DNA of 30,644 bases from a virus (lineage: Duplodnaviria > Caudoviricetes), in IMG/VR virus record IMGVR_UViG_3300020045_018668, positions 1-30,644 of that record, one strand, 5' to 3'. Numbering within the stretch: the stretch's first letter is position 1; the number at the start of each line of letters is the position of its first letter. The position numbers and the translations under genes are program-made. Under the pieces are notes generated by a model, which made no database searches, had not been told where the DNA came from, and worked only from the letters and a program-made list of their open reading frames with translations. Positions 3,771 through 30,644 of the stretch are shown piece by piece.

Positions 3771-5176
3771 ATATTTTGGAGCGCCAGCGGGGTGCTGCTC
3801 ATTTTTTCCAGAAACTTGTTGGTGAGCTTGGATTGTTCAACGAGGGACTTGGTATTTCGTTCCGTTCCTTTTGCGGGATCATTCGCCCCGCCGCCGTTGA
3901 ATATAAAACCCATTTTTTCCAGGCTGGTGACATCGGGCTTTTGATAATTGGTGCTGACAAAGTCCGGCACGGTGGATTTAGACAAGGCCGTAGAGGCCAC
4001 CTCCGATTTGGGAGCGCGGGCGGCAAAGCCACCGAGCTTGCTGAAGAGCATTGAATATTGTTCTTTGAGTGAATCCGTTCCCATTTTCAACGAATCATTT
4101 GCCGATTTGTTCATCTCGGTTAGATTCATTCCTTCGGTGAAAAACTCGGCGCCCTTGCCTTTGCGCTCGGTTAAAATATCGGCCATAGACTGGGCTTTGA
4201 AACCGTCAAATCCGGCGGCCTTGCCGATCTTGGGAATCTTGCCGATGAACTCCATGAATTTCTGGACGACAAATTCCATCCCTGCCTGTAAATAGATCAG
4301 CGGCGTTTCCAGCGCCTTGAGCAGCGCCACGCCGATTTTTTGGAAGATTCCTGGAGCCATCACCGCTGCGGCCGATAATCCGAAAACAATGGTGTCTCCG
4401 ATTAGCTCGGCCAATTTTCCTTCCCTAAACGCCTGGAACGCGCCGGAGAACATGGTGCCGATGTCCTGGCCGATGGCCACGAGATCAATTTTTTGGAGGG
4501 CTTCCACCACGCCTTGCAGCGTCGGCACCACGCCCTCCGCAATGCCGGCGAACATGCCGCTTAAAGAGCCTTTGACCCGGGTGATGGTATCGCCCAATTT
4601 ATCGAAGGCGGCGGCGTTGCGGGCAAAGACGGCGGCCTCGCGCGCCGAATCGGCGATGGTTTGTTTGAACCCTTCCGCGTCGCGACTGATCTGCATCATG
4701 TTCGCGGCCCCCTCGCGACCGAACAGCCGGGAGGCCACATCCATGCCAGCCGCCTTATCTAATCCCGCCAGCGCGCCGGATACGGCCTCGAACTGACCGG
4801 GCGCGTCCAGGCCTTTTAAATCCTCCACGCTCAAGCCGAGCGCGGCAAAGGCGCCCTCAGTTTTTTTCCCCATCTCATCCACCCCGCTCAGGGATTTATT
4901 GAGGCGGTTAATCATTCCCGGAAGGGACTCCGCCGAGATACCCACTACCTTGAATGCTTCCTGCATCTGGTAGAGGTTGCCGACCGTTTCACCAGTGCGG
5001 GCCGAAAGATCTTGGAGCGCGCCGCCGCGTTCAATGGCCCCCCAGACGCCTTCCACGGTTTCGGAAAGCAGTTTGCCCACCGAGAGGAACGCCACCATGC
5101 GGCCCGCCGCGCGATCCAGCCCGGACGCGAAGGCGCTGGTTTCCAAACCGAGGGCAAAGGTGAGCACGCCAGCCAT
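3767..5176 (-). CDS. Tail tape measure protein (short)
   Basis: 469 aa, Ala/Gly/Leu-rich helical; LSARTG..V..L, LFGREGA motifs; follows the tail chaperone genes. Confidence 0.85.
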   Translation of the reverse strand: MAGVLTFALGLETSAFASGLDRAAGRMVAFLSVGKLLSETVEGVWGAIERGGALQDLSARTGETVGNLYQMQEAFKVVGISAESLPGMINRLNKSLSGVDEMGKKTEGAFAALGLSVEDLKGLDAPGQFEAVSGALAGLDKAAGMDVASRLFGREGAANMMQISRDAEGFKQTIADSAREAAVFARNAAAFDKLGDTITRVKGSLSGMFAGIAEGVVPTLQGVVEALQKIDLVAIGQDIGTMFSGAFQAFREGKLAELIGDTIVFGLSAAAVMAPGIFQKIGVALLKALETPLIYLQAGMEFVVQKFMEFIGKIPKIGKAAGFDGFKAQSMADILTERKGKGAEFFTEGMNLTEMNKSANDSLKMGTDSLKEQYSMLFSKLGGFAARAPKSEVASTALSKSTVPDFVSTNYQKPDVTSLEKMGFIFNGGGANDPAKGTERNTKSLVEQSKLTNKFLEKMSSTPLALQNI

Positions 5177-5179
5177 AAA

Positions 5180-5423
5180 TCAAATTGCGTTCAATATTTC
5201 TCGCTGCCGTTTCCGCGTTTCCTGGCGGATATAGCCGTTGACCATATCCACCTCGGCCATCGGGTCCAGCAAGGTGGCGGCGGCCCGTAGGGCGATCCCC
5301 TGGCTCAACGGCAGCGTGTAAAGAATCTGGTGCATGGTGATCTGGGGATACGCCCGCATCACGCCGGCAACGTAGAGGAGCCACCAGCCGAGGCCGTCTT
5401 CACGGTCGCTGGTGGCCGCGTAA
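5180..5423 (-). CDS. Tail assembly chaperone GT extension (-1 frameshift product)
   Basis: -1 frame relative to 5359..5958 reads YAATSDREDGLGWWLLYVAGVMRAYPQ...; candidate slip site CCG CTT TTT ACG at ~5419-5430. Confidence 0.7.
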
Positions 5424-5958
5424 AAAGCGGACTGCTCTCCCCGGAACTTTTGGCGGAAAACTCGACGGCCGTTTCAAACGCGCGGGCAAATTGCTGGCAG
5501 ACAGCCTCGGCCAGCAAGCCAATCACCACGGGATTCATCTTCAGGCCGATTTCAGCGCGGGCGAGCGAACGGAAATGGTCCCGGCCCTTGGCCAGCTCCG
5601 CTTCCACCCAGGCGGGATCGGAAAGAAACACCAAAATCATGTCCCAGCCGTCCTGATCGGTGAACGGAGTCGGATCGCGCTCCTCTACGGGCTTGCGGGC
5701 CTCGGCCATTTGTTTGAGCAGCGGGCTATCGAGTTGGCGAAGGCTCGGGATGTCCATGCCCACGATCGGGCGCACCGCAAAGGCGCCCACGCGGATGGGC
5801 CGCGAGGGAAACGCGAGGGCCAGGGGACCGGGCAGCGGATTGGCATTGGCTTCCGCCAGGGCGATCCGGCGGGCGGATTCCCGCTGGAGCTCGGCGATGG
5901 TCAGGCCGGTGACCGGATCAATTTCCAGCGCGGCGGGCGATTGGGGATCGGTGTGCAT
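5359..5958 (-). CDS. Tail assembly chaperone (gpG-like)
   Basis: 199 aa between the tail tube and tape measure genes, overlapped by an open -1 frame. Confidence 0.75.
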   Translation of the reverse strand: MHTDPQSPAALEIDPVTGLTIAELQRESARRIALAEANANPLPGPLALAFPSRPIRVGAFAVRPIVGMDIPSLRQLDSPLLKQMAEARKPVEERDPTPFTDQDGWDMILVFLSDPAWVEAELAKGRDHFRSLARAEIGLKMNPVVIGLLAEAVCQQFARAFETAVEFSAKSSGESSPLFTRPPATVKTASAGGSSTLPA

Positions 5959-5970
5959 TTGTTTTTGGGA

Positions 5971-6231
5971 TCAGGGTTGCGCGGGTTCAGTGACTTCTTC
6001 GTATTCCGCCAGAAATTCCTCGGCGGGCGGGGTGTGAACGGAATCGGCATCCAGCCGATGGACTTCAAAGGCCGGGCGGCGGCCGCCGCGCTTGACGCCG
6101 AAGTCCAGGGCTTCGATCAGCCGGACGACTTTGAACCGGCGATCAGCCGCCGAGCCGGCGGCGTCTTTGATGCCGAAAGTTTTTCCGACCGCGGCGGTCA
6201 TTTCCGGCGTAACGATTGATTTAGTGGCCAT
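5971..6231 (-). CDS. Hypothetical protein
   Basis: 86 aa, A-rich leader, within the tail operon. Confidence 0.7.
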   Translation of the reverse strand: MATKSIVTPEMTAAVGKTFGIKDAAGSAADRRFKVVRLIEALDFGVKRGGRRPAFEVHRLDADSVHTPPAEEFLAEYEEVTEPAQP

Positions 6232-6295
6232 GATTTTTTTTATTTGGTTGGGCGTTTAGAATGGGTGGTCAAAAGGAAAGCAGCTTTCCATTTGC

Positions 6296-6682
6296 CTAGG
6301 TGAGGGTAATGGCGGCGTAATATTCCAGAGTGAAGGTGCGGGAACCTTCCTGTTTTCGCGTAACAGATTCGCCATTGTCCACCACGAGGTAGGCCTTGGC
6401 GGCGGTATCTTTGGGGGCCTTGAACTGGGCCACGTCCATCTGTTCCGGCCAGGTCTTGCTGGTATCGTCAACGACTTCGACCTCGACTTTATCGCCGTCT
6501 TTGAGGCCGACAACAATGGCGGTGAAGCCGTCGTTATCCTCGATCTTGGTGGGTTCGCCGCCGAGGCGGGAGGCTTTGATGGATTTGATGATAGCCGTGG
6601 ACCACGGCGTCGCCTGGCTGGCGATGGTGGTGCCCCAGCGGATGGTGGTAAACGTGCCTTTAATGGTGGGTGCGGTGGCCAT
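6296..6682 (-). CDS. Probable major tail tube protein
   Basis: 128 aa, beta-rich, upstream of chaperone and tape measure genes; no sheath gene seen. Confidence 0.65.
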   Translation of the reverse strand: MATAPTIKGTFTTIRWGTTIASQATPWSTAIIKSIKASRLGGEPTKIEDNDGFTAIVVGLKDGDKVEVEVVDDTSKTWPEQMDVAQFKAPKDTAAKAYLVVDNGESVTRKQEGSRTFTLEYYAAITLT

Positions 6683-6712
6683 AATTTTTGGTTGGGTTGG
6701 GGGTTGTAAAAA

Positions 6713-7030
6713 TTATTGGAGGCGGAAAAACTCAAACGGTTTATCCATCGGCGTGAGGTAACATGTCTGGCTCGTTGGCACAGTCGCCACGGTCTGCCAG
6801 TCAAATAGATTGGTGCTGGACTGAATCTGCCATGACCAATTCGGCCAGATCGTTTGGTCGTATTTCACCTGCGCCCATGAAATGCGGAGGGTGCGGGTGG
6901 GCGCGGGCGTCACGATGGCCGCGCTTTTTGCGGCAACCGGCGGAACGGCGGGCGGCGGGGCCGCGCAGCCGGCGCAGATCAGGAGCGCGGTGAGCGCCGT
7001 CCGATATTTCGTGAGGTTGGCGGCGGTCAT
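6713..7030 (-). CDS. Lipoprotein with a host-type C-terminal STNL-W...FFR domain
   Basis: Start reassigned to ATG 7030 (ATGA overlap); lipobox ALLICAG|C; C-terminus WQIQSSTNLFDW...FEFFRLQ. Confidence 0.75.
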   Translation of the reverse strand: MTAANLTKYRTALTALLICAGCAAPPPAVPPVAAKSAAIVTPAPTRTLRISWAQVKYDQTIWPNWSWQIQSSTNLFDWQTVATVPTSQTCYLTPMDKPFEFFRLQ

Positions 7031-8916
7031 GGCATTCCAACGTGAATACAGGATTTTCGGACGGTGATTGTTCCGGTGTTCGCCGTGTTTTGAACGCGGT
7101 GACCAATTCGGGTTCCGGCTGGAATGGTGATCGTTCCTTGACCGCAAGCAGAGCCAGTATCGGTGCCCGATGTTTTTCGAACCCATTCGATGCTGGTGCA
7201 TTCAACGCCATTCGTGAAAACCGCGCCCTCGAAGATGTCGCCAACCCCGCCGCTGCCATCGAAGCTAATCGTCAGGCTAATTCGATAGGTGCCAGCCACT
7301 GTATTAGTAAGGCTCCCTTCTGTTGCACTTCCCGTGAATTGAAAGCCCTGAAATAGGTTGTAATTAGTCAGCATTACATAGGTGCCAGATGGTGTCAGAA
7401 TAAAATTGTTTGTCGTGGACATGGTTAGTTCTCCCCAAGGAGAAGTGATGCCGTTAGAGACGGTGAGCGACGCCATATAAGAAGAACCGTATGCCGTGAG
7501 TCCGAAATAAAATAAACCTGTTTGATCAGTTAGAGCCGCTCCCCCGACAGCGAATCCACTGCCAGTCCCGCTTACGCGAAGTGCTTTTCCAGAAATGGTT
7601 GTATTCTGATTAAGGCCAATAGCTACGTCAGTAACGGTAAGCCTATTTCCAGCCGCGCCGCCTATACTTACTGTTCCAAATAGAGTTCCATTCGTTTTCT
7701 GCGCGAATTGGGCGTCTTGAATCGCATCCGCCGCCGAGATGATGGCTTGAATTGAGGCAGAGGCTTGCAGCAACGTGTAACCGCCCAAGGTGGCCGCGTT
7801 GACTCCAGTCAGGATGCTCCCATCAGTGCTGGTCCAGCGGTTTGTCCCGTCCGTGAAGTATGCGCCAGCGACCATGCCCGCCGTCGAGTTGGTCGAACCA
7901 AGTGCGAGTCGGCCCATCGGAACCGTCCCAGAGGACAGCCTGGAGGCGTTAAGATTCGTGAGGGTGGCTCCGTTGCCATGATGATTCCCGTAAAATCCAG
8001 CATATGCATTTGTGTCTGATACAAATACTGACGCATCAATCTCCCAGCCCAAAAAACTGGCAACTCCTGATCCTGCGTCAATGTTCCCTGTGAAGTTATT
8101 GTTAATTCCATCCCCGAACACTACAATGTTTTGCCCATTTGTCACAACACCCATGTCCGTCACGATTGATTGCACTGAGTTGGTCGTTGTTAGGCTGTTT
8201 AATTCTGTTCCGTTCGGCGCATTGGTGGCCACCGCCGCAGCTAGCGCGTTCTCGGAATTGGTTGCAAAAGCGATTTTATTGGTGACGTAAACGACGTATT
8301 CCGCGTAGCCGGCCCAATTGGCATAGTCCACAGCCGCGTTCGTCAGGGTCATTGACCGCCCATCGCCAACGTAAACCCACGGAGGATTAGTAATACTGGA
8401 GGCTGACCAGTTCGTCGGGATGATGGATTCAATTTCCGCCAGGCCCACCGCCGAAAAACTGTTGCTCGTCGGGTTGCCGGAGACGACGCCAGACAGGTTG
8501 GTAATGGTGGTGCCGGATCCGCCTTTTAATTCAAACCTGGCATCGGCGGCGGCGGACCAGGCGGCAAATTCCGGGCTGTTGGGATCCACTTCCAAATAGT
8601 CCTCGGCCCGCACCAGGCTGTTGGTATGCGGAATAACAAATCCAAATGCGACGGCGTTATTCGTTTTGGGAGCCACCAGGCAGCGGCCGGATGCCGCGTT
8701 GGAGATGGTGAATTGCCCGGCGTAATCGGTCGTGAAATTCTTCTGGATAACCGCCGCCACGCCACCGGCCACGGTAACCGGGCTGGGAATGGTGACGATA
8801 CATTTCACCTGAGCCAGGGGAACGGATTGAAAATCCGTGACGGTCACCAGCACGTCCGCCGCCGAAGCGCCGAGCAGGCCGGCCAACAAAATCAAAATCG
8901 AAAGTTTAGTTTTCAT
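7027..8916 (-). CDS. Fibre-like protein with Sec signal peptide (629 aa)
   Basis: Start reassigned to ATG 8916 (MKTKLSILILLAGLLGASA|AD); GNGATLTNLNASRLSSGT fibre motif; C-terminal BclA/C1q-like GTYRISLTISF domain. Confidence 0.75.
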   Translation of the reverse strand: MKTKLSILILLAGLLGASAADVLVTVTDFQSVPLAQVKCIVTIPSPVTVAGGVAAVIQKNFTTDYAGQFTISNAASGRCLVAPKTNNAVAFGFVIPHTNSLVRAEDYLEVDPNSPEFAAWSAAADARFELKGGSGTTITNLSGVVSGNPTSNSFSAVGLAEIESIIPTNWSASSITNPPWVYVGDGRSMTLTNAAVDYANWAGYAEYVVYVTNKIAFATNSENALAAAVATNAPNGTELNSLTTTNSVQSIVTDMGVVTNGQNIVVFGDGINNNFTGNIDAGSGVASFLGWEIDASVFVSDTNAYAGFYGNHHGNGATLTNLNASRLSSGTVPMGRLALGSTNSTAGMVAGAYFTDGTNRWTSTDGSILTGVNAATLGGYTLLQASASIQAIISAADAIQDAQFAQKTNGTLFGTVSIGGAAGNRLTVTDVAIGLNQNTTISGKALRVSGTGSGFAVGGAALTDQTGLFYFGLTAYGSSYMASLTVSNGITSPWGELTMSTTNNFILTPSGTYVMLTNYNLFQGFQFTGSATEGSLTNTVAGTYRISLTISFDGSGGVGDIFEGAVFTNGVECTSIEWVRKTSGTDTGSACGQGTITIPAGTRIGHRVQNTANTGTITVRKSCIHVGMP

Positions 8917-9391
8917 CGGCCTCCGTTTGGTCGGGAATATCTGCCACGACCCCGAGGGTAATGGCGTAGGCGTCGGTGGTGACGCCTTGAAATTGAAGGC
9001 GGCGGGCTCCCAGATAGGCCGGCGCGGCCTCATCCACATCCGGGAAGCGCAGACTGCGCAAGACTTCGCGGGCGGACTCCACCAGTTCAAACATGGGTTT
9101 CCCATCGCCCACGCCTTTCATCAGCGAGTCGCCCTGGTTCAGCGCGAGCGAACGGCCGCGCGAGATGGCCACCATGATTTTGCGATCCACCCGGCCCAGA
9201 ACGTCGCTCAGTTCCGCGGAGCGAGGCAGTTCCTCATCGAACAGGATCGCGGAACGGACAGCGCCGGGGGTCTCGCCCAGGATTTGAAACAGGTGCGGCT
9301 CGTCGTTGGCGATCTTGACGGCCCCGCCCACTGACCGATGCCAGGCAGCCAGGGCATCGGCGATCTGTTGGATCTGATCCTTAATGGTCAT
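8906..9391 (-). CDS. Head-tail joining / tail terminator protein (Mu gp37 position)
   Basis: 161 aa; ATGA overlap with the gp36-like gene. Confidence 0.65.
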   Translation of the reverse strand: MTIKDQIQQIADALAAWHRSVGGAVKIANDEPHLFQILGETPGAVRSAILFDEELPRSAELSDVLGRVDRKIMVAISRGRSLALNQGDSLMKGVGDGKPMFELVESAREVLRSLRFPDVDEAAPAYLGARRLQFQGVTTDAYAITLGVVADIPDQTEADEN

Positions 9392-9798
9392 AGGGTGGAG
9401 GCGTTCAAAGCGCTGGCCGTCTGGATCACGGCACCAGGCGTGAAGGCCGGGAGTTGTTTCGCGTCCAGGCTCTGTTCGCCATCGGCAATGGCCTTCAGGC
9501 GGCGGCGAAATTCGGTGGCGCGCTCGGCATAGGGATTTTTCTCATCCGGCCCCGAGCGGCGGCGCTCATAAATCTTTTCACAAACAAAAATCAGGGTGGC
9601 CTCGGTCACCAACTTGGGAACGGGCTCAAAGGGCACCACAAATCGCCCGGCCAAAAACCCATCCACGGCTTCCCCGGCGGAAGCGATCAGGCGGGCCAGC
9701 AAGCCGTCATCGGCATTGCCATCGCCATCATCGTCCAATGCGGCGCGCAAGCGCGGCTCGCTGAACTCGTCTTCGACTTGTTGGGGGCTGAGATACAT
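9388..9798 (-). CDS. Mu gp36-like head-tail adaptor (DUF1320)
   Basis: MY.S......F...L...LDDDG.G..D....I..A...VDGFL.GRF.VP...P pattern. Confidence 0.85.
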   Translation of the reverse strand: MYLSPQQVEDEFSEPRLRAALDDDGDGNADDGLLARLIASAGEAVDGFLAGRFVVPFEPVPKLVTEATLIFVCEKIYERRRSGPDEKNPYAERATEFRRRLKAIADGEQSLDAKQLPAFTPGAVIQTASALNASTL

Positions 9799-9904
9799 GG
9801 GGGATTTTCAGAGAACGGCGCGGCGGAAATGCACAACCACCGCGCCGTCAGTTTGACAACCACGCGTCCGCGTCATGACGACGTGGCCGCAAAAGCGTGG
9901 ACGG

Positions 9905-10369
9905 CTACGGAACCACCAATTGATACACGTTGGTTTTGGTCGAGCTGTTCCCGGAATCAGCAGGGGCAACCTGTTGGATGCGCAGATAGCGGTTCACATC
10001 CGGCGGGATGGGGAATTTGATGACTGTAGCGGTGTTGGTGGCCGCGCTGGCGCCAACAATCTGGCCTTGGATCAGCGGCGAGGTGACTGTCCAGGTGGAA
10101 TTATTGGTGGAGGTTTGGAGAATAAACGTCAGCGTGGTGGCGGCGTTGGTGGCGTTGGGCAGCAGGGGAATAGTCGCCCGGATAAAGGCGGTTTCCCACA
10201 GCGTGCTGGTTTCCGCGTTCCCCAGATCGAGGGCTGCAGTGTAATTCGTGGCACCGGCCACGGCGTTGGTCTGGCTGACCTTGAGGTTGGAATCATCCGA
10301 GCCGAAGCTCGAAAACGCCGGCAGCAAACCGAGCGCGGCCAGCAAGAGAAGGGAATAAATAGTTTTCAC
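9905..10369 (-). CDS. Capsid cement/decoration protein (Bbp16-like) with signal peptide
   Basis: Directly after the capsid gene; ALDLG...LQTS..NSTW...IP....RYLRI pattern; N-terminus MKTIYSLLLLAALGLLPAFSSFG (GTG start). Confidence 0.7.
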   Translation of the reverse strand: MKTIYSLLLLAALGLLPAFSSFGSDDSNLKVSQTNAVAGATNYTAALDLGNAETSTLWETAFIRATIPLLPNATNAATTLTFILQTSTNNSTWTVTSPLIQGQIVGASAATNTATVIKFPIPPDVNRYLRIQQVAPADSGNSSTKTNVYQLVVP

Positions 10370-18901: not shown

Positions 18902-19042
18902 TTAGTGCGGTAAAGCGATGGGCGGCGGCGGCGGCAGCGGCGTGAGGCGTTTAATGCGCCGATAATTCCGGGGTGAGCCGCGCTTGACGCGGTGCTCGCT
19001 CAAATCCCGGACGGCTTGCAAGGTGGCTTCGTAATTTTTCAC
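18902..19042 (-). CDS. Small basic Pro-rich protein (46 aa)
   Basis: GTGA overlap with the lipase stop; MKNYEATLQAVRDL...PLPPPPPIALPH ends 4 bp before the next start. Confidence 0.45.
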   Translation of the reverse strand: MKNYEATLQAVRDLSEHRVKRGSPRNYRRIKRLTPLPPPPPIALPH

Positions 19043-19770
19043 GCCAATCCTTTCAGCCGTTCCTGGTATTCGGCCAGGAAGTGATTCGAGAGAAACGCCA
19101 GCTCATGTTCCCGCCAACTGCGCCAGAATCCAAAAACATCGGCGAACAGGGCCGCGCCGATGAAGGGATTCACCTGCATCGTGCCGTTACGTTTGAGAAA
19201 AATCTCCGTGCCGCAATCCCGGTAGCCCATAAGCAACGTCGGCACCAGGGGAACGGGATCGCCCTCATTGGCCACGGCAAAGGTGCGGTCGCCCAGGGCG
19301 ACATTGTAAAGTTGGGCGAAGCATTTGTTGCCCACGCGTGGCTGGCCGAACGTATAGACTTGCTCCACATTGAAGCCCATGCGCTGCAATTCCAGCGCGG
19401 CTAGAATGGCCAGCGCCCCGCCGAGCGAATGGCCGGTGACCACCAGCGGCCGATTTTTGTAGCCGCCCAGAATCCGGATCAGATCGCCCAGGATACTTTC
19501 GGCGCCATCCAGAAACCCATGATGCACTTCGCATTGGTCGCCATTGGCTTCTTCCACGAGGAGCCGCTTGGTGCATTGGACATCGGTCAGCCAATCACGC
19601 AGATTGGTGGTGCCCCGGAACGACACCAGAACGGTCGCACCTGGATCAATAACCACTTGGGTGTCCGTGGTGGCATTGGCCAACGTGGGTGCGGCGCGAT
19701 ACGCCATGGCGGAAGCCCGGGCGCAGGCATTGGCATTGCCCAGATCAAATTTTGTGGCGCTTGGATTCAT
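19039..19770 (-). CDS. Class 3 lipase (alpha/beta hydrolase)
   Basis: SFRGT, DW.TD, VH.GF, TGHSLGGALA, YTFGQPRVG, D.VP.VP and terminal His. Confidence 0.92.
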   Translation of the reverse strand: MNPSATKFDLGNANACARASAMAYRAAPTLANATTDTQVVIDPGATVLVSFRGTTNLRDWLTDVQCTKRLLVEEANGDQCEVHHGFLDGAESILGDLIRILGGYKNRPLVVTGHSLGGALAILAALELQRMGFNVEQVYTFGQPRVGNKCFAQLYNVALGDRTFAVANEGDPVPLVPTLLMGYRDCGTEIFLKRNGTMQVNPFIGAALFADVFGFWRSWREHELAFLSNHFLAEYQERLKGLA

Positions 19771-22419: not shown

Positions 22420-24675
22420 ATGAACGAAGACAATAACAGACTTTCCGAACCGGCTGACTTGCGGGAAAACCCTGCCAGCGGCGCGAAGACACCCGCAATG
22501 AATCGTTGCGATGCGTGGCCGGTTCGGATTCCTTTTGGTGGCCGGCCACAGGGCCTTGAAATAGAACCGGAGGCGAACTCCGGCGAGTTGGCGCGGACTT
22601 TATTGGATTTGGCCGCGCCGGTCTTCATTGAACATCAAGCCCCGAATGGGGCGGCCACCATTCCCGCTTACCCCCAAGACGCTACGGCCGGCGACGACAA
22701 TGCTGCGGCGTCCGCTTCTCAGTTCACGGCGGCAGCGTCGCCGCTGCCGGCCGTTACTTTCACGGGTGCCGCCCGTCGCGCCACCGCCACCGAGGCGGAA
22801 CTGGTGGAGGCCAATCAGAAAAAAGCGATTTGCGAAAAGTTTTTGGAACTCACTAAATCCGGCTACTCGTTAAACCAGGCGGCCACGGCCTGCGGCAAAA
22901 GCCCGAGTTGGTTCAGCGGGTCCGCTTCCATGCTGGCGCGGTATCAGCGCGACGGCCTCGCGGGCCTGCTGCCGCAGCGCAGCGCCACCACCTCGGTTGG
23001 AGAGCTCACCGCGCAGATCGAAGCGCTTACCTGGTTCCTACCGGCCGCGCAGTTTTTCTATCTCATCACAAATCGCACCAATGTTTCCGGTTCGGTGCCG
23101 GAGGCCATCCGGCGCGTGATCTCGCTGCCCAATCTGCCGGTGGGCTGGACCAACACGGTCAAAGCGCGTTTCCTGAAAAAACTCGGCCTCTCCCTGGTGC
23201 CCACCTGCCCGGATGTTTTGCGCGAGGAAATTCTGGCGCGGCAAAAGGCCGGCCAGCCCTTGGTGCCAGACCGGATCAGCAAAGCCATTACGCGCGCCGT
23301 GACCAGCGCGGTGGTGGAACAATATCGCCGTCCGCATGAGACGGGCCTGAACTATCTGCAATGCCCCGGAACGATGATGATCTCCCGCCGCAACGGGCTT
23401 CAGGAATTTATCCGGGCGGGCGACATCCTCGAAGCCGATGACGGCAGCATTAATTTCCCGGTGTGCATTCCGTGGACGTCACCCAATGGCGGCTTGATTA
23501 CCGAGACGCCTTGCAGCGCCAACTATGGCGTGATCATTGGTCGGTTCCAATGGCTGCGCACGATTGACGCGGCCACGCGGTTCCGCCCAGGCTGGGTGTT
23601 TGTGGCCCGCCAGCGCGGCGGCTATCGCGGCGCGGACGTGCTCACGCTGATGCACGGCATCACCAAACAGCATGGCGCCTGGGAGGAATATCGGTTTGAG
23701 CGCGGCGTCTTCAAAAGCAACCTGGTCAAGCAGACGGTCAAGCTGCTCGGCTCGCGCCTGCACACGGTCATTTCGCCGCACTCAAAGCCGTTTATCGAAG
23801 GTGGCTTCAATCAGGATTGGACGAAACTCTCAGTGCATTTTCCCCAATGCGACATTGGCCGGTATCGCGGCGACACGGAAGAAGCCAACAAGCTGGTGCA
23901 GAGTTGCCGCACCGGGGCCAAAGACCCGCGCAAATATTTCCCGATGCTGGCGGACGCCTTGCAGGCGTTTGCACAAATCACCGAGGAAGAGAATCGCACG
24001 CTGGTGAAAAGCCGGAACTCCGGCCAGTGGGTGCCTGAAGAAAAATGGGCGCGCGAGACGCGGGATAATCCGCTGCGCCAGATTGAATCCGCGATGGCCT
24101 TCATGTTCGCGCCCTACGCGCTGGAATGGACGGTCAAGGGCATGTTGGTGGGCGGGCGCGTTCCGCTGTTTGAGGATATGAGCGTGCCGTTTGATTTCTC
24201 TGCGCCGTATTTGCAGGAGTTCAACGGCGCCCGCGTGCGGCTGCACTTTGACCCCACGGCGCATAAATGTTTTGCCACCCCGGTGCTGATGCAGGATTGG
24301 AACGGCCACCGCGCCGGCGAGGTGTTGGGGCAACTTCAGCAGGTGAATGAGACCACCGGCTACATCCGCATGATCCTGGGCTGGGGTGATGATGCCGGAA
24401 CGATTGGCCTCAAGGCCAAACAACAGGCGGCGGTGGCCATGCGCCGGGAAGTGCGCACGGTGATGCCCGGCGGCCGCAGCGGCTACACCCGCAGTGAGGT
24501 GAAGGCGCTGGATCAGACGGGCATTGTGGAACGCGGCGCACGGCTGGAAGCTGGAGTTCCAGCTTCAGCTTGTTCCCCCAAGCGCGAACCCCAGCCAGAT
24601 CGCGCCACGGAACGCGCGGCCAAGCGCGAAGAGCTCGCAAAATTTGAACGGGAGAATCAACACCTGTTCGTTTAA
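22420..24675 (+). CDS. MuA-like DDE transposase
   Basis: HTH (YSLNQAATACGKSPSW), ILEADD, ID.ATR, FERG, SKPFIEGGFN; followed by an AAA ATPase. Confidence 0.85.
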   Translation: MNEDNNRLSEPADLRENPASGAKTPAMNRCDAWPVRIPFGGRPQGLEIEPEANSGELARTLLDLAAPVFIEHQAPNGAATIPAYPQDATAGDDNAAASASQFTAAASPLPAVTFTGAARRATATEAELVEANQKKAICEKFLELTKSGYSLNQAATACGKSPSWFSGSASMLARYQRDGLAGLLPQRSATTSVGELTAQIEALTWFLPAAQFFYLITNRTNVSGSVPEAIRRVISLPNLPVGWTNTVKARFLKKLGLSLVPTCPDVLREEILARQKAGQPLVPDRISKAITRAVTSAVVEQYRRPHETGLNYLQCPGTMMISRRNGLQEFIRAGDILEADDGSINFPVCIPWTSPNGGLITETPCSANYGVIIGRFQWLRTIDAATRFRPGWVFVARQRGGYRGADVLTLMHGITKQHGAWEEYRFERGVFKSNLVKQTVKLLGSRLHTVISPHSKPFIEGGFNQDWTKLSVHFPQCDIGRYRGDTEEANKLVQSCRTGAKDPRKYFPMLADALQAFAQITEEENRTLVKSRNSGQWVPEEKWARETRDNPLRQIESAMAFMFAPYALEWTVKGMLVGGRVPLFEDMSVPFDFSAPYLQEFNGARVRLHFDPTAHKCFATPVLMQDWNGHRAGEVLGQLQQVNETTGYIRMILGWGDDAGTIGLKAKQQAAVAMRREVRTVMPGGRSGYTRSEVKALDQTGIVERGARLEAGVPASACSPKREPQPDRATERAAKREELAKFERENQHLFV

Positions 24676-24925: not shown

Positions 24926-25963
24926 ATGCACCAAGAAAAAATCCTCCGGCTGCGCGCCCTGGCGCGGGCCGTGCAAGACTACCAACTCGAACGCGGCCTC
25001 TCGGATAGCAAGCTATGCACCAAGGTCTCGCAGGTGGGATCCACCAAGACTTACAAGCGCATCCTAGCGGACGGCGACAGGCTGGAGGAGCTCAATGTTG
25101 ACAAGCAACTCACAAACTATGAGGCGGCGGTGGAGTTCATCAAGATTCTCCGCGCCTCGGAACGCCCGCCGGAGCCGGAGTATGACGACTTTGCCAACAT
25201 TGAAGATTCCGTAACCGCCGTGGCCCGTGCCATGGCGGAGGAAACCATCGCCCGCTTCATCGTGATCGAAGGCGAGAACGGCACGGGCAAGGACGCGGTC
25301 CAGAACGCGCTGATCAAGAAATGGCCCAACATCATTCTCCAGGTGGAAGCGACCGAACTCTGGCGCGAATCCATGGCGGTGCCGCTGGCGGACATTCTCA
25401 ATGCGCTCTCGCTCCGCCGCCAGCGCGATGGGGAAGGCGAAAAATTCGTGGTGCCTTCGCAGCCGCTCGGCCGGCTGGCGCTGATCCTGGAGGAATTGAA
25501 GAAGCGCAAACTGATCCTGATCGTGAACGAAGGCCACCACATGGGGCCGCGGGCGCTGAACATGATCAAGACGCTGATCAATCAGACGCCGGTGGTGCCG
25601 GTGATGATGTGCGTGCCAAAACTGCTGGCCCGCCTGGTGAGCGGCAATTACGAGGAAGCCATTCAACTGTTTGGAAATCGGCTGTGCGAGCGCGTGCGCC
25701 TGAGCAGTCCGCAACCGGATGAGATCGGGCTGATGTTGGACCGGCGCGGCGTGCGGTTTGATACCGATCTAACCCGCATGTCCGCCGCCAATACGCTGGC
25801 GGCTGAGGCCCCGCAGTTTGGCAATTGGCGGTATGTGACCCAGGTCTGCCGCGAGGCGCATACCGCCAGCAAAGAGCGGCCGCTGAACGCCCAACAGTTC
25901 GCTGCGGCCAAGGGTATCGCCGAGAAACGCCGCATCATGCGCCAAAAAACGAACTCGAATTGA
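24926..25963 (+). CDS. MuB-like AAA+ transposition ATPase
   Basis: N-terminal HTH, GENGTGKD Walker A, LILIVNEGH Walker B, QL..R arginine finger. Confidence 0.85.
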   Translation: MHQEKILRLRALARAVQDYQLERGLSDSKLCTKVSQVGSTKTYKRILADGDRLEELNVDKQLTNYEAAVEFIKILRASERPPEPEYDDFANIEDSVTAVARAMAEETIARFIVIEGENGTGKDAVQNALIKKWPNIILQVEATELWRESMAVPLADILNALSLRRQRDGEGEKFVVPSQPLGRLALILEELKKRKLILIVNEGHHMGPRALNMIKTLINQTPVVPVMMCVPKLLARLVSGNYEEAIQLFGNRLCERVRLSSPQPDEIGLMLDRRGVRFDTDLTRMSAANTLAAEAPQFGNWRYVTQVCREAHTASKERPLNAQQFAAAKGIAEKRRIMRQKTNSN

Positions 25964-27353: not shown

Positions 27354-27917
27354 ATGATCAGCCTAACCGACACGAACACCGGAACCACCCGTAGCTTTGA
27401 CCTGGGGGATATTGAAAAATTGGCCCTTAAATTCTCGGATCAGCACGCGGCCCTCTCGGCCATCGTGGCGGAATTGGAGGCGGCGAAACAAAAGCTGATG
27501 CGCCAGCACCTGCCGGCCTTGCGCGCGGCGGTGGCGCGGGCGGCCGCTGCCAAGCTCACGCTGCACACGGCCATCGCCGCGGCGCCGGGTTTGTTTGAAT
27601 CGCCCCGCACGCGCATTTTCAGCGGCATCAAGGTGGGTTTTCAAAAGGGCAAGGGCGGGATTGAATTTGAGGACGCGGATAAAGTCTGCGCCCTGATCCG
27701 CAAGACGTTTGGCGATGATGCCATAGCCTACCTCCGCACCACGGAAGCGCCGGATAAGAAGATGCTGGCGGACCTCCCGGTGAGCGAGTTGAAGAAGATC
27801 GGCTGCACGGTGGCGGACACCGGCGATGTGGTGGTGATCAAACCCACGGACAGCGAGATCGAGAAAACCGTGGCCGCGCTGCTCAAAGACGCGGTGGAAA
27901 GCGAGGTGCAATCGTGA
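27354..27917 (+). CDS. Gam-like host-nuclease inhibitor
   Basis: Coiled coil then LFESPRT....GIKVGFQKGKG...E.PDK..L.......LKKIG; start reassigned to ATG 27354. Confidence 0.7.
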   Translation: MISLTDTNTGTTRSFDLGDIEKLALKFSDQHAALSAIVAELEAAKQKLMRQHLPALRAAVARAAAAKLTLHTAIAAAPGLFESPRTRIFSGIKVGFQKGKGGIEFEDADKVCALIRKTFGDDAIAYLRTTEAPDKKMLADLPVSELKKIGCTVADTGDVVVIKPTDSEIEKTVAALLKDAVESEVQS

Positions 27918-27933
27918 GCACGGAATATCGTTA

Positions 27934-28060
27934 CTTTAACGACCAAGCTCACCGACGCGGCAACGAAACCAAACTATATGCACGACCCATACGAACGCCC
28001 CGAACCGATGGCGCAACCTGAACCGGCGAAAGCCGCGTTCAGTGCAGCGCAGTGTTCTGC
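27934..28060 (-). repeat. attC-like site 1
   Basis: + strand: CTTTAAC-6-GCTCACCGACGCGGC ... GCCGCGT(T)CAGTG(C)AGC-5-GTTCTGC. Confidence 0.85.
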
Positions 28061-28211
28061 GTCACCCACGGACGCGGAGATAACCGACCTCAAAATGAGG
28101 CTCAATCAAATCATCTGGGAATACGCGCCAGCCGAGACAACCATCGGAGACGCCGAGGGCTTGGCCTGCAAAATATTCAACAGCGTCAGGAAGGGTAAAT
28201 ACCTGATATGA
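27978..28211 (+). CDS. Cassette 1 hypothetical protein
   Basis: 77 aa; ATG lies inside the attC1 loop. Confidence 0.7.
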   Translation: MHDPYERPEPMAQPEPAKAAFSAAQCSASPTDAEITDLKMRLNQIIWEYAPAETTIGDAEGLACKIFNSVRKGKYLI

Positions 28212-28212
28212 C

Positions 28213-28320
28213 GCAGAACGCTCCCGATCAGCGACCTGCTGAATAATTTATGGCTACCAATTCAACTCAACGGCCCGATGCCGAGCGAACCGCAGGTTCG
28301 ATGCACCGGGATTGTTCTGC
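28213..28320 (-). repeat. attC-like site 2
   Basis: GCAGAAC-6-GATCAGCGACCTGC ... GCAGGT(T)CGATG(C)ACC-6-GTTCTGC. Confidence 0.8.
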
Positions 28321-28516
28321 GGCTCGTCCGATTGGAACGACAGGCAGAAAATACCGAAGTGTCAGGGCGCTAATCATCGGAGAGAAGCTCCCGAAGAAAG
28401 TGCTGCGTGAATTTGACAGGCTCGTGCGCCTCGACCGCAAGCGAGAGCGTGAACAGTCAAAGCCGCAGAACGCTCTGGCTGAGCCAAGCGGAAAAGAAAA
28501 GCATAAACAACCATGA
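28250..28516 (+). CDS. Cassette 2 hypothetical basic protein
   Basis: 88 aa; starts in the attC2 loop, stops in the attC3 loop overlapping the next ATG. Confidence 0.65.
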   Translation: MATNSTQRPDAERTAGSMHRDCSAARPIGTTGRKYRSVRALIIGEKLPKKVLREFDRLVRLDRKREREQSKPQNALAEPSGKEKHKQP

Positions 28517-28571
28517 ACATTACCGAAAAATCAGCCGCGCCAACCGCTTTGGCTCCAGCCAGTGGTTCGAC
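28465..28571 (-). repeat. attC-like site 3
   Basis: GCAGAAC-6-GCTGAGCCAAGCGG ... CCGCTT(T)GGCTC(C)AGC-5-GTTCGAC. Confidence 0.9.
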
Positions 28572-29034
28572 GACATGCAACGAATGCGGCGGAAATCACG
28601 AACCATCTGGTGCGCGAATCGCATGTATCAACCACTGGAAACGCCGCGCCATCATCGCGGAAAATGAACTGCTCGTAGCTAAATGCTTCGGGGATAAAAC
28701 TCTGGATTGGCTGGTGGATAACGTCCACAAAATCGAAGTGGACTGTGATGCTGCCTACTGTGATGAGCAGCAAAAACCGGCGCTATCCTTCCGCTCGCTA
28801 AAATTCCACGACTACCGGCCTTGGTGTGTGAAGGGTGAATCTCGCGGACGCCTGCGGGACGCACTGAGAAAAATAATGGCTCTACAAGAATCGCCCAACG
28901 AAATAACGGTGCTCAAATCGGCGCTGGAGCGCATTCGTAGCTTTCCAGTCCATAGCGAGCCGGTTGGGGGAGCGTATGCCATGCAAGACATAGCGCATGA
29001 AGCCTTGTCGTCGAACGACAAGCTGAGCGACTGA
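28513..29034 (+). CDS. Cassette 3 hypothetical protein with CxxC...H...C motif
   Basis: 173 aa; starts in the attC3 loop, ends in the left arm of attC4. Confidence 0.75.
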   Translation: MNITEKSAAPTALAPASGSTTCNECGGNHEPSGARIACINHWKRRAIIAENELLVAKCFGDKTLDWLVDNVHKIEVDCDAAYCDEQQKPALSFRSLKFHDYRPWCVKGESRGRLRDALRKIMALQESPNEITVLKSALERIRSFPVHSEPVGGAYAMQDIAHEALSSNDKLSD

Positions 29035-29114
29035 CATGAGCGCGCCGATGACATCCGAATCCACCCAAGACGCAGCCCGCGCTCATGGCAGTTCGCTCCA
29101 GCGCATGGTTGGGC
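29010..29114 (-). repeat. attC-like site 4
   Basis: GTCGAAC-5-GCTGAGCGACTGACATGAGCGCG ... CGCGCTCATGGCAGT(T)CGCTC(C)AGC-5-GTTGGGC. Confidence 0.9.
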
Positions 29115-29178
29115 ATCCGTCGCATTTTCAACGACTTACAAAGCCTCAAAAATAAATGCAAAAATCGTCTCAAAACGC

Positions 29179-29207
29179 TTGACACTCTCACGATAAGCGG
29201 TTATCGT
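29179..29207 (+). promoter_or_regulatory. Cassette 4 internal sigma70 promoter with operator palindrome
   Basis: TTGACA-17 bp-TATCGT; ACGATAA-N4-TTATCGT at 29190-29207; ATG at 29217. Confidence 0.7.
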
Positions 29208-29216
29208 ATCTGCCTG

Positions 29217-29582
29217 ATGAATAAATACCAAATCAAAGCCAACAAAGAGAAGCTCGCCCGAATCCAATCCGGCGAACTCACACGCATCGCTGACCGCGCC
29301 ATCGCCGCTGCCAAAGCGGTAATGGTCAAGGGCAGCCACACGATAGACGCATCCGATATGACGCAGAGCGCGAACCCGCTCGAACGCCAAATCGGCGAAC
29401 AAATGGACGGCTACACCGTCTCGGCCAAAATCAGCGCGAAGGTGGAACTGGACAGCGCCGCCCGCGAAATCTGCAAGATCGGCACGATTGATAAAGTAAT
29501 CGCGCCCGAAGCGATGGCCGAATGGAATCGCATCGAAGCCGTCGCGAACGAACTCGGCCTCAACGAAGAGGAGGTCGCATGA
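29217..29582 (+). CDS. Cassette 4 gene A, hypothetical (121 aa)
   Basis: Start reassigned to ATG 29217, just after the promoter. Confidence 0.7.
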   Translation: MNKYQIKANKEKLARIQSGELTRIADRAIAAAKAVMVKGSHTIDASDMTQSANPLERQIGEQMDGYTVSAKISAKVELDSAAREICKIGTIDKVIAPEAMAEWNRIEAVANELGLNEEEVA

Positions 29583-29806
29583 AGCTCTACCGAATCACGA
29601 TGGGTAAACGGGTCGCGGGCGGTAATCGTCATGACTGGTATTCCGGCCAGTTGGAGCACATGGCCTCGTATGGCGATGTGAACGAAGCCAAAGCCCATCT
29701 CAAGGATGGCAACCCGGACGGCTCGGATATTTGGCCGGAAGTCTATGACGAGGCGGGCAACCGAATGGTGCTTCAGGGCCGCAAACTCGTGAGGATGGGC
29801 GAATGA
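29579..29806 (+). CDS. Cassette 4 gene B, hypothetical (75 aa)
   Basis: GAGGAGG SD; ATGA overlap. Confidence 0.7.
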   Translation: MKLYRITMGKRVAGGNRHDWYSGQLEHMASYGDVNEAKAHLKDGNPDGSDIWPEVYDEAGNRMVLQGRKLVRMGE

Positions 29807-29973
29807 ATAAGGCCGCCCAAGCTCTCGGTCGGCTCGCCAAAGGCGTGCCGAAAAACTACTCGCCCGCTGAAATCGAGCGGCGCAAAGAAATGATGGAAGC
29901 CATCAACGCGAAAAAACGGCAGGTGTCGAAAGCGAAGAAACGCAGGATGCCCAACGATGGAGGTCAGCGATGA
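29803..29973 (+). CDS. Cassette 4 gene C, small basic putative DNA-binding protein (56 aa)
   Basis: MNKAAQALGRLAKGVPKNYSPAEIERR...; ATGA overlaps at both ends; below the ORF-track cutoff. Confidence 0.65.
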   Translation: MNKAAQALGRLAKGVPKNYSPAEIERRKEMMEAINAKKRQVSKAKKRRMPNDGGQR

Positions 29974-30079
29974 GCCGTCATGGGCATAAAGAGATGGAAC
30001 GGTGCAAGCGCATCGCAGCGAAAACGAGCGTCGAAGTCTTCAAGGCTAAGGCTCATTCGCTGCACCGACTTTGTTCTGC
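29949..30079 (-). repeat. attC-like site 5
   Basis: GCCCAAC-6-GGTCAGCGATGAGCC ... GGCTCAT(T)CGCTG(C)ACC-6-GTTCTGC. Confidence 0.88.
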
Positions 30080-30248
30080 TGCGTCGTTGCTCGCCGAACT
30101 CGCTTCCGAATTGGACAAGCGTGCTGAGGGCAAGACGGTAGCGCAGGACGAACTGCACACATACCGCGACATGCGCTTCAACGCGGAGATACTGCGGATG
30201 GCACAAAAGGTCATCGAACGTGAAACGCAGCAGAACGACCGGAGCTAA
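29970..30248 (+). CDS. Cassette 5 hypothetical protein
   Basis: 92 aa; ATG lies in the attC5 inner stem. Confidence 0.65.
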   Translation: MSRHGHKEMERCKRIAAKTSVEVFKAKAHSLHRLCSAASLLAELASELDKRAEGKTVAQDELHTYRDMRFNAEILRMAQKVIERETQQNDRS

Positions 30249-30337
30249 CACACGGCGCGATTAACCACGATGCTCAAAATCACAACCGAATAAACTGCCG
30301 ACGCGGGTCGCCGTTGTGTCCAGCGACCTTGTTAGGC
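30230..30337 (-). repeat. attC-like site 6
   Basis: GCAGAAC-7-GCTAACACACGGCG ... CGCCGT(T)GTGTC(C)AGC-6-GTTAGGC. Confidence 0.82.
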
Positions 30338-30354
30338 ATCAACCGAAAGCACAA

Positions 30355-30570
30355 ATGTTCACAGTCGAAATCAGAATCAACGGCGCAATGATAGCGCACA
30401 TCTACGGTCGCAACATCGCGCCCCTGCCAAACGGCAAGACGCGATACGAATACGAATACTACGAGGCGGAAACGCACAAGGTGCAAAACGGCTGCGTGGA
30501 ACATCTGCGAGAGGATGGGATAGTGCCGCTCGTGTCTTCGATACTGGATGACGTGTCGCATGATGCCTAA
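30355..30570 (+). CDS. Cassette 6 hypothetical protein (71 aa)
   Basis: MFTVEIRINGAMIAHIYGRN...; TAA stop lies within the GCCTAAC box; GTG 30316 is an alternative start. Confidence 0.7.
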   Translation: MFTVEIRINGAMIAHIYGRNIAPLPNGKTRYEYEYYEAETHKVQNGCVEHLREDGIVPLVSSILDDVSHDA

Positions 30571-30644
30571 CGCAATAGCTGAGGGACGGGCGGAGAGCGC
30601 CACGTCGCCGAAGCCAACCAACTCACCACTATGAAAAAACGCAC
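30565..30644 (-). repeat. attC-like site 7 (truncated by the window end)
   Basis: GCCTAAC-6-GCTGAGGGACGGGC; ATG at 30631 in the presumed loop. Confidence 0.7.

Follow-up and report, generated by a model that had tools for sequence, protein, structure and literature searches.

The DNA analysed here, called the window throughout, is IMG/VR record IMGVR_UViG_3300020045_018668, a single virus contig of 30,644 bases without host flanks, whose right end is taken up by a chain of hairpins built like integron attC sites and lying behind the gam gene of a Mu-like phage. PHROG matches place the terminase, portal, capsid and tape measure genes on the minus strand, and on the plus strand a Mu-type transposase (22420..24675; PHROG 310, E 1.1e-6), a MuB-like transposition protein (24926..25963; PHROG 296, a weak match at E 0.0032) and a Gam-like end-protection gene (27354..27917; PHROG 491, E 2e-10). 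The full Mu-like set of transposase, MuB-like protein, Gam, and Mu-type portal and head genes is therefore present, with MuB weakly matched, and so is the division shared with other Mu-like phages between an early operon on one strand and terminase, portal and capsid on the other. An earlier reading of the same letters without database searches (the sequence-only reading) had called this a Mu-like prophage; the Mu-like genes bear it out, but the prophage state does not follow from a lone contig without host flanks. The array begins 20 bases past the gam stop. In most gam relatives ordinary overlapping genes follow gam, whereas here the accessory stretch in this position is an attC array.

The attC array behind gam

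Six complete imperfect hairpins and a seventh, cut by the contig end, were located with an attC scanner of our own build (not IntegronFinder), which scores the L boxes, two bulges and seven further pairs and was tuned on the window's own sites. The complete sites score 13.5-15 out of 15; no site was found in 500 dinucleotide shuffles or in bases 1-27899, and a scan assuming the other attC strand scored nothing on the plus strand. Spacers of 5-7 nt, L boxes of 8 and 7 nt and the same two extrahelical bases recur in all six, as the sequence-only reading had described, so that each shows what defines an integron attC site, namely an imperfect hairpin with R and L boxes, an unpaired spacer and extrahelical bases at L''. 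Beyond the GTT/AAC triplet, each GTT box pairs over 8-9 bp with the AAC box of the next site and over at most 5 with any other box in the 6x7 matrix, and all six end-complementary pairs listed earlier were recovered. Folding of each site had also been proposed as a check, and it was only partly borne out: unconstrained minimum-energy folding of the native plus strand gave the attC-like stem for sites 2, 3, 4 and 6 and other folds for sites 1 and 5. RNAalifold returned no pairs from an automatic alignment of the sites, because the variable loops are misaligned there.

The top strand of every site lies on the minus strand of the window, and the cassettes and their open reading frames (ORFs) are on the plus strand. 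Site 1 (27938..28056, score 14.5; recombining bottom strand on plus) heads cassette 1 (27940..28218, 279 bp), whose 77-residue ORF at 27978-28211 starts in the hairpin loop and is present as the same gene call in a protein collection. Cassette 2 (28219..28470, 252 bp) follows with site 2 (28217..28316, score 13.5) and an 88-residue ORF at 28250-28516, which starts in the hairpin, runs in frame through the next AAC and stops over the following start. Site 3 (28469..28567, score 15) belongs to cassette 3 (28471..29015, 545 bp), where a 173-residue ORF at 28513-29034 likewise starts in the hairpin and passes through AAC. Cassette 4 (29016..29954, 939 bp), behind site 4 (29014..29110), holds three ORFs, at 29217-29582, 29579-29806 and 29803-29973; cassette 5 (29955..30235, 281 bp), behind site 5 (29953..30075), has a 92-residue ORF at 29970-30248. 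Cassette 6 (30236..30570, 335 bp), with site 6 (30234..30333, score 14.5), encodes 71 residues at 30355-30570, matching PHROG 3491 (E 4.8e-12), and its stop falls within the TAAC box. Only one arm and the loop of site 7 (30569..30644) precede the contig end, with a gene start at 30631. The six lengths are AAC-to-AAC distances and equal the circle sizes that had been proposed for excised cassettes.

At the distal end of the array (27914..27939, plus strand), a GTG overlaps the gam stop and opens a frame whose translation has the first AAC as its ninth codon. The AAC box here has no complementary GTT box anywhere in the array, and the frame is likely to be that of a phage gene interrupted at a secondary site. 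Some hairpins have counterparts elsewhere: site 4 is 90-94% identical to sites of four other viral contigs (L334, L332, L346 and L359, in our numbering of loci), the identity being limited to the stretch from AAC to about GTT, and site 5 is 79% identical to a site in L220 that heads a different gene. The protein of cassette 6 has relatives in other phages, 52-56% identical, that sit outside any cassette. Cassettes 1-5 gave no family in PHROGs or Pfam, nor, for three of them, in NCBIfam, and an Atlas search with the cassette 3 protein returned only matches scoring under 0.9. The array region had no blastn match among 50,697 GenBank phage records, and L317 matches the window at the gam end only.

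Cassette 4 differs in its contents. Ahead of its three ORFs lies a candidate sigma-70-like promoter (29179-29207), overlapping an 18-base palindrome and matching the consensus at 10 of 12 positions, a level of match equally frequent in shuffles. L091 carries a similar promoter-palindrome cassette, the last ORF of which is 53% identical to the last ORF of cassette 4, and cassette 4 may be expressed on its own from the promoter-like site and palindrome. The same arrangement, a promoter-like site overlapping a palindrome and then short genes with a small basic protein last, was noted at 29172-29210 in the window and at 7488-7525 and 7985-8015 in L091; such cassettes are possibly self-regulated modules.

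Inverted genes and cassette exchange

The orientation of the genes relative to the sites formed no part of the sequence-only reading. On the plus strand the 8-nt L box is the right arm in 6/6 sites, and the plus strand is therefore the attC bottom strand. The cassette genes, for which the same calls are present in the protein collection, also lie on this bottom, recombining strand and are thus inverted relative to those of ordinary cassettes. Four of the six complete cassettes, and the cut seventh, have their starts inside their own hairpin; four ORFs in the window run past the next AAC, which each of them takes as a codon, and at two junctions a stop codon overlaps the start that follows. From polarity and gene placement together, the unit is therefore a hairpin plus its gene, delimited from AA|C to AA|C, with the gene inverted.

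Further afield, the longer ORF lies on the bottom strand in 87 viral cassettes vs 28, and in 4 vs 19 in bacterial genome loci, while AT skew matches the intI strand in 103 of 105 cassettes. Read-through ORFs in the viral family loci keep AAC in frame in 53 of 55 cases. The same holds for 39/39 (30/30 without duplicates) among loci found by the attC pattern alone, a sample of 38 loci on 36 contigs.

One comparison involves another metagenome (run X1), in which a 13,326-base contig matches window bases 29953-30237, cassette 5, at 284 of 285 positions. Unrelated sequence stands before the left AAC and a different attC arm after the right one, so that both junctions fall at AAC boxes. The hairpin accompanying the gene in this contig is the left one, as the polarity set by the extrahelical bases predicts. 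The cassette 5 protein cluster has four members that are alike up to the AAC codon and then continue into four different tails; one of these is the X1 flank, and the cluster therefore adds three further contexts, not four. A relative of the cassette 6 protein also ends in a different tail. Searches for the cassette 5 protein among viral or JGI metagenome contigs found no locus. A short, low-depth contig of X1, too short to serve as evidence, joins window 29927-29956, the last 30 bases of cassette 4, to another attC arm.

Within a single array, that of L089, a 251-base cassette is present twice, as first and last member, with 250/251 bases identical, and AA|C is the precise end of both copies. 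That a cassette is duplicated when it reinserts is characteristic of integrons. The sequence-only reading had proposed a shufflable cassette array, and had suggested comparing relatives for changes at AA|C; both the displaced cassette 5 and the L089 duplicate have their boundaries at the AAC boxes, and together they support the view that cassettes of the window move as whole units and that the bottom-strand crossover lies at AA|C.

Hairpins and gene bodies also appear to have separate histories. In a comparison of 124 cassettes, 14 listed pairs share the hairpin only, the common stretch starting at AA|C and stopping no more than 6 bases from GTT (identity up to 95%), a pattern also explicable by conservation within a repeat family, and one pair has a common body under different hairpins. 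L334 and L095 differ in the hairpin but agree in the 3' portion of a body, GTT box included. This suggests that hairpin and body may be joined at the GTT box when cassettes are made.

Related phages with attI and intI

It is within site 7 that the contig breaks off, and this is the side on which attI and the integrase gene intI are found in relatives. We examined 80 of the 136 viral Gam loci found and 62 metagenome Gam loci. Among the former there is one multi-site array (L013), with single sites in L009 and in L027/31/32; among the latter, three have sites after gam (L259, L257 and L260). In L259 (Gam 71% identical) gam, cassettes, attI and an intact IntI follow one another on one strand, the integrase scoring 327.8 bits against TIGR02249, for which the cut-off is 265. 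The gene after intI in this locus is also found directly after gam in integron-free L001. L257 (Gam 73%) has different cassettes and an attI identical to that of L259, at an intI start, and the array of L260 (Gam 76%) is cut by a contig end. L013, at 50% in Gam, shows gam, cassettes, a non-hairpin AAC site and an intact integron integrase, all on one strand. The order of early genes, array, attI and intI on one strand is thus observed in relatives. What Mu-like L319 has in common with L259 (87% identical in DNA) begins at the AAC of attI and ends with the stop codon of intI; our scanner detected no array there. In L001 (10540-10905), we noted an 11-14-base stretch with overlapping stop and start at the gam end, repeated after the next gene, which looks to be another kind of gene-insertion footprint.

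A wider set of 88 viral intI loci was chosen by likeness to one phage integrase. At 40 of them (36 without four duplicates) complementary ends link an attC chain to a site that precedes the intI match by 29-147 bases. These 40 sites share the attI consensus AA|C-A-A-T-G-A-T-T, of which only AAC was imposed and which we interpret as a putative R box, spacer and degenerate L box. The TIGR02249 cut-off is reached by 11 of 13 full-length integrases, the other two scoring 256 and 236 bits. Across 23 aligned integrases R, R, H and Y are invariant and K and H nearly so, residues that we take to be catalytic, and the IntI insertion is present. The flanks of these loci belong to Mu-like phages, to phages with DnaB or RecT and to phages with head-tail adaptors, and among 127 selected ORFs the cargo of relatives includes DNA methyltransferases and a Mom-like protein.

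In a quick IntI tree, a supported group of 51 rows unites viral enzymes with enzymes mostly from Verrucomicrobiota bins, while L259/L319 and other viral enzymes fall elsewhere; the tree is midpoint-rooted and without bootstrap, its sequences were chosen by likeness, 12 of its 170 rows were left out for being short or identical, and we draw no donor or order of events from it. For the host of the window phage, a Verrucomicrobiota bacterium is only a lead, taken from this tree of other phages' enzymes. Gam itself matched one of 401 genomes from the phylum of a Limisphaerales bin, at 35%.

Several observations concern these loci in their own right. By a strict pattern, 14/36 viral loci have a further conserved box separating attI from the start of intI, and Verrucomicrobiota bins also have one ahead of intI; L137, L138, L144 and L145 are among the loci noted for it. 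The box may serve as an additional site for IntI or as the box of a repressor. The genome contigs L144 and L145 have an IntI of the mainly viral group, yet each has one scored cassette of ordinary polarity. L135, binned as Polyangiaceae, combines Mu-like genes with an attC array and an IntI that is 69% identical, and is probably a phage contig in the bin. L124 bears two attC sites of opposite polarity (about 2350-2990) some 7 kb upstream of a backward array on the same contig. The idea that attI-intI is itself a cassette was dropped, as no attC scored directly after intI. Outside the array, the window has a lipase/esterase gene (19039-19770, minus strand; PHROG 21992, E 2e-25) where the late region begins, a position in which one might look for lysis genes, and L090 also carries a lipase/esterase gene.

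Alternative readings and relation to known integrons

We consider it very probable that the window holds a phage-native integron cassette array, with genes reversed relative to attC and cassettes that would be cut out and inserted at AA|C by an IntI, whatever the source of that enzyme. In the established chemistry of integrons, recombination between folded bottom strands takes place at AA|C, the circles enter at attI, and the junction that results is resolved by replication (PMC5027507). Applied to the phage, the folded bottom strands of two hairpins would recombine to release a circle, which would then be inserted at attI. Since insertion is at attI, new cassettes would adjoin intI, so that the newest would be farthest from the early promoter and last in the presumed transcript. 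The inversion of the genes would let one early transcript cover array and intI; with both read in one pass, a separate cassette promoter would be unnecessary, and shuffling would be coupled to lytic growth. Starts in the hairpin loop and an in-frame AAC would keep the genes translatable and coupled beside any neighbour and in any order.

A number of results weigh against this view or temper it. Neither attI nor an integron integrase is present in the window (tblastn best E 1.2), the absence of an integrase having been reported already by the sequence-only reading; no contig extending the window was found, and the run search listed one DNA holder and no RNA holder. Among the eight loci whose Gam is at least 68% identical, no array is seen after gam in five. 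The evidence for mobility is wholly comparative, and that from X1 is one contig. The ORF-length test is noisy, with 22 of 105 cassettes scoring opposite and cassette 5 itself failing, and 47 of 94 cassettes also have a long frame on the other strand. As the 88 intI loci were picked by likeness to one integrase, their tallies give no prevalence. In the sample collected by attC pattern, intI lies within 6 kb in 3/38 loci (with the attI motif on the predicted side in all three), and both L334, with 11 sites, and Mu-like L340, with 6, end in a non-hairpin AAC without intI. Despite the scarcity of intI near the attC-pattern loci and the ends of these two arrays, we modestly favour an intI of the window phage's own, just beyond the contig end, over an integrase acting in trans; the sequence-only reading had put forward both an integrase further right and a host IntI in trans.

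The same observations speak for an orphan array, that is, a cluster of attC sites lacking an integron integrase (CALIN), with an attI remnant and either served in trans by the integrase of the host or of a co-infecting phage, or frozen. The contig as it stands has at least two attC sites inside 3 kb without an adjoining intI, but its array runs into the contig end. This alternative, which differs from a phage-native array with its own intI only in the source of the integrase, is quite possible: L009 has one cassette after gam and no intI, and close IntI relatives are carried by Verrucomicrobiota genome bins. Against it, both close gam relatives that can be read to the end of the array (L259 and L257) reach attI at an intI start, as does L013, and end complementarity is perfect in 6/6 pairs, with no sign of decay.

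Explanations that do away with a phage-native array fare less well. A piece of a host chromosomal integron might have been captured whole and lie antisense in the phage, as in Vibrio prophages; such captures are published (PMC9892861) and the hairpins are of ordinary attC architecture. It would bring genes on the top strand, as seen in 19/23 genome-locus cassettes and in phage TJE1, whereas the gene calls, conserved proteins and in-frame AAC of the window are all on the bottom strand, and the cargo is phage-like, with PHROG 3491 here and methyltransferases and a Mom-like protein in relatives; we regard this origin as very unlikely and already largely refuted. Exchange by a Xer-type recombinase in trans, or by homologous or illegitimate recombination between similar hairpins, would draw on the hairpin sequence families found across cassettes (up to 95% identical). 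It is nonetheless unlikely, given that identity in X1 and L089 ends at the AAC triplet with unrelated sequence beyond and only 3-4 bases in common, and that the recombinases beside this type of array all match the integron-integrase model best and have the IntI insertion. Finally, the position of the hairpins at gene junctions, with start codons, makes an additional role in expression plausible, but that they are nothing more than chance structures, terminators or other RNA elements is extremely improbable and, as a sole explanation, already refuted: 0/500 shuffles gave such a site, and an RNA role fails to explain pairing with the next site rather than within a site, or natural exchange at AA|C.

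The proposed phage-native array would work like an integron in its attC sites and its crossover, and departs from one in the orientation of its genes. Common to both are the bottom-strand hairpin, the R and L boxes, the extrahelical bases near L'', the A/C crossover in AAC and, in the phage family, the polarity of attC relative to attI and intI (PMC5027507, PMC8946536); on the recombining bottom strand, R' contains AAC and the extrahelical bases are close to L'' (Nivina et al., 2016, PMC5027507). Ordinary cassette genes lie on the top strand and are read from the promoter Pc at attI, whereas the phage genes occupy the bottom strand and run in the direction of attI and intI, and the newest cassette would be last, not first, in the presumed transcript. 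Treponema inverted-integrase integrons resemble the phage family in that intI and cassette genes run in the same direction (Cury et al., 2016, PMC4889954). There, however, intI is oriented as the attC sites are, while in the phage relatives intI occupies the bottom strand, as is ordinary relative to attC, and lies downstream of the genes, which alone are inverted. A Treponema-like layout was seen in GenBank phage KX853513 (our L320), where an IntI-like gene annotated xerD is followed at 4680-10100 by five attC sites of ordinary polarity, with all genes on one strand; this locus, which is outside Tables 1-2 of PMC9892861, where partial genomes were excluded, appears to be a second way to fit an integron into a phage operon.

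Clusters of attC sites in phages are already known from Qi et al. (2023), who report 17 CALINs and 3 complete integrons in 10,705 phage genomes and recombination by IntI1 at 5/6 tested phage attC sites (PMC9892861). Their CALINs resemble the window array in being attC clusters in phage genomes, and methyltransferase cargo is common to them and to relatives of the window phage, whereas the complete integrons that they describe derive from a host by capture or belong to class 1, unlike what we propose here. The TJE1 cluster, the only one of the 17 that we scanned, has short sites and ordinary polarity. Inverted genes, starts in attC, a shared phage attI and an early-operon intI are not mentioned in the accessible text of PMC9892861, and we found no description of a backward phage integron layout in the openly licensed literature (PMC, bioRxiv); passages of PMC13366799 and PMC8352920 contribute nothing on it. 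The present analysis adds the exchange of a window cassette, the intact IntI and shared attI in many phages, and the reading-frame rule.

More broadly, we lean slightly towards the view that true integrons have been domesticated by tailed phages of several types not related to one another. A compact attI-intI, taken up from more than one lineage of IntI, would sit in the early operon and draw on backward cassettes pooled across phages, and hairpin and body would reassort at the GTT box. If so, the cassettes of this pool would share one standard, a start inside the hairpin and AAC as a codon, and reassortment at the GTT box would show that cassettes are assembled from ordinary phage genes and would open cassette making to direct study. 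To our knowledge the origin of cassettes remains unresolved, and the sharing of hairpins and bodies apart from each other bears on it. Several IntI-attI pairs and about 120 cassettes are provided as substrates for assays. Backward arrays would be misread by tools that expect genes on the top strand of attC. Integrons are known as bacterial devices, and the few phage cases published have been taken for captured pieces of a host; here phages appear to operate a version of their own, in which the gene is flipped and an early transcript serves array and integrase, and this would be a site-specific route to phage mosaicism and to the exchange of DNA-modification genes between unrelated phages.

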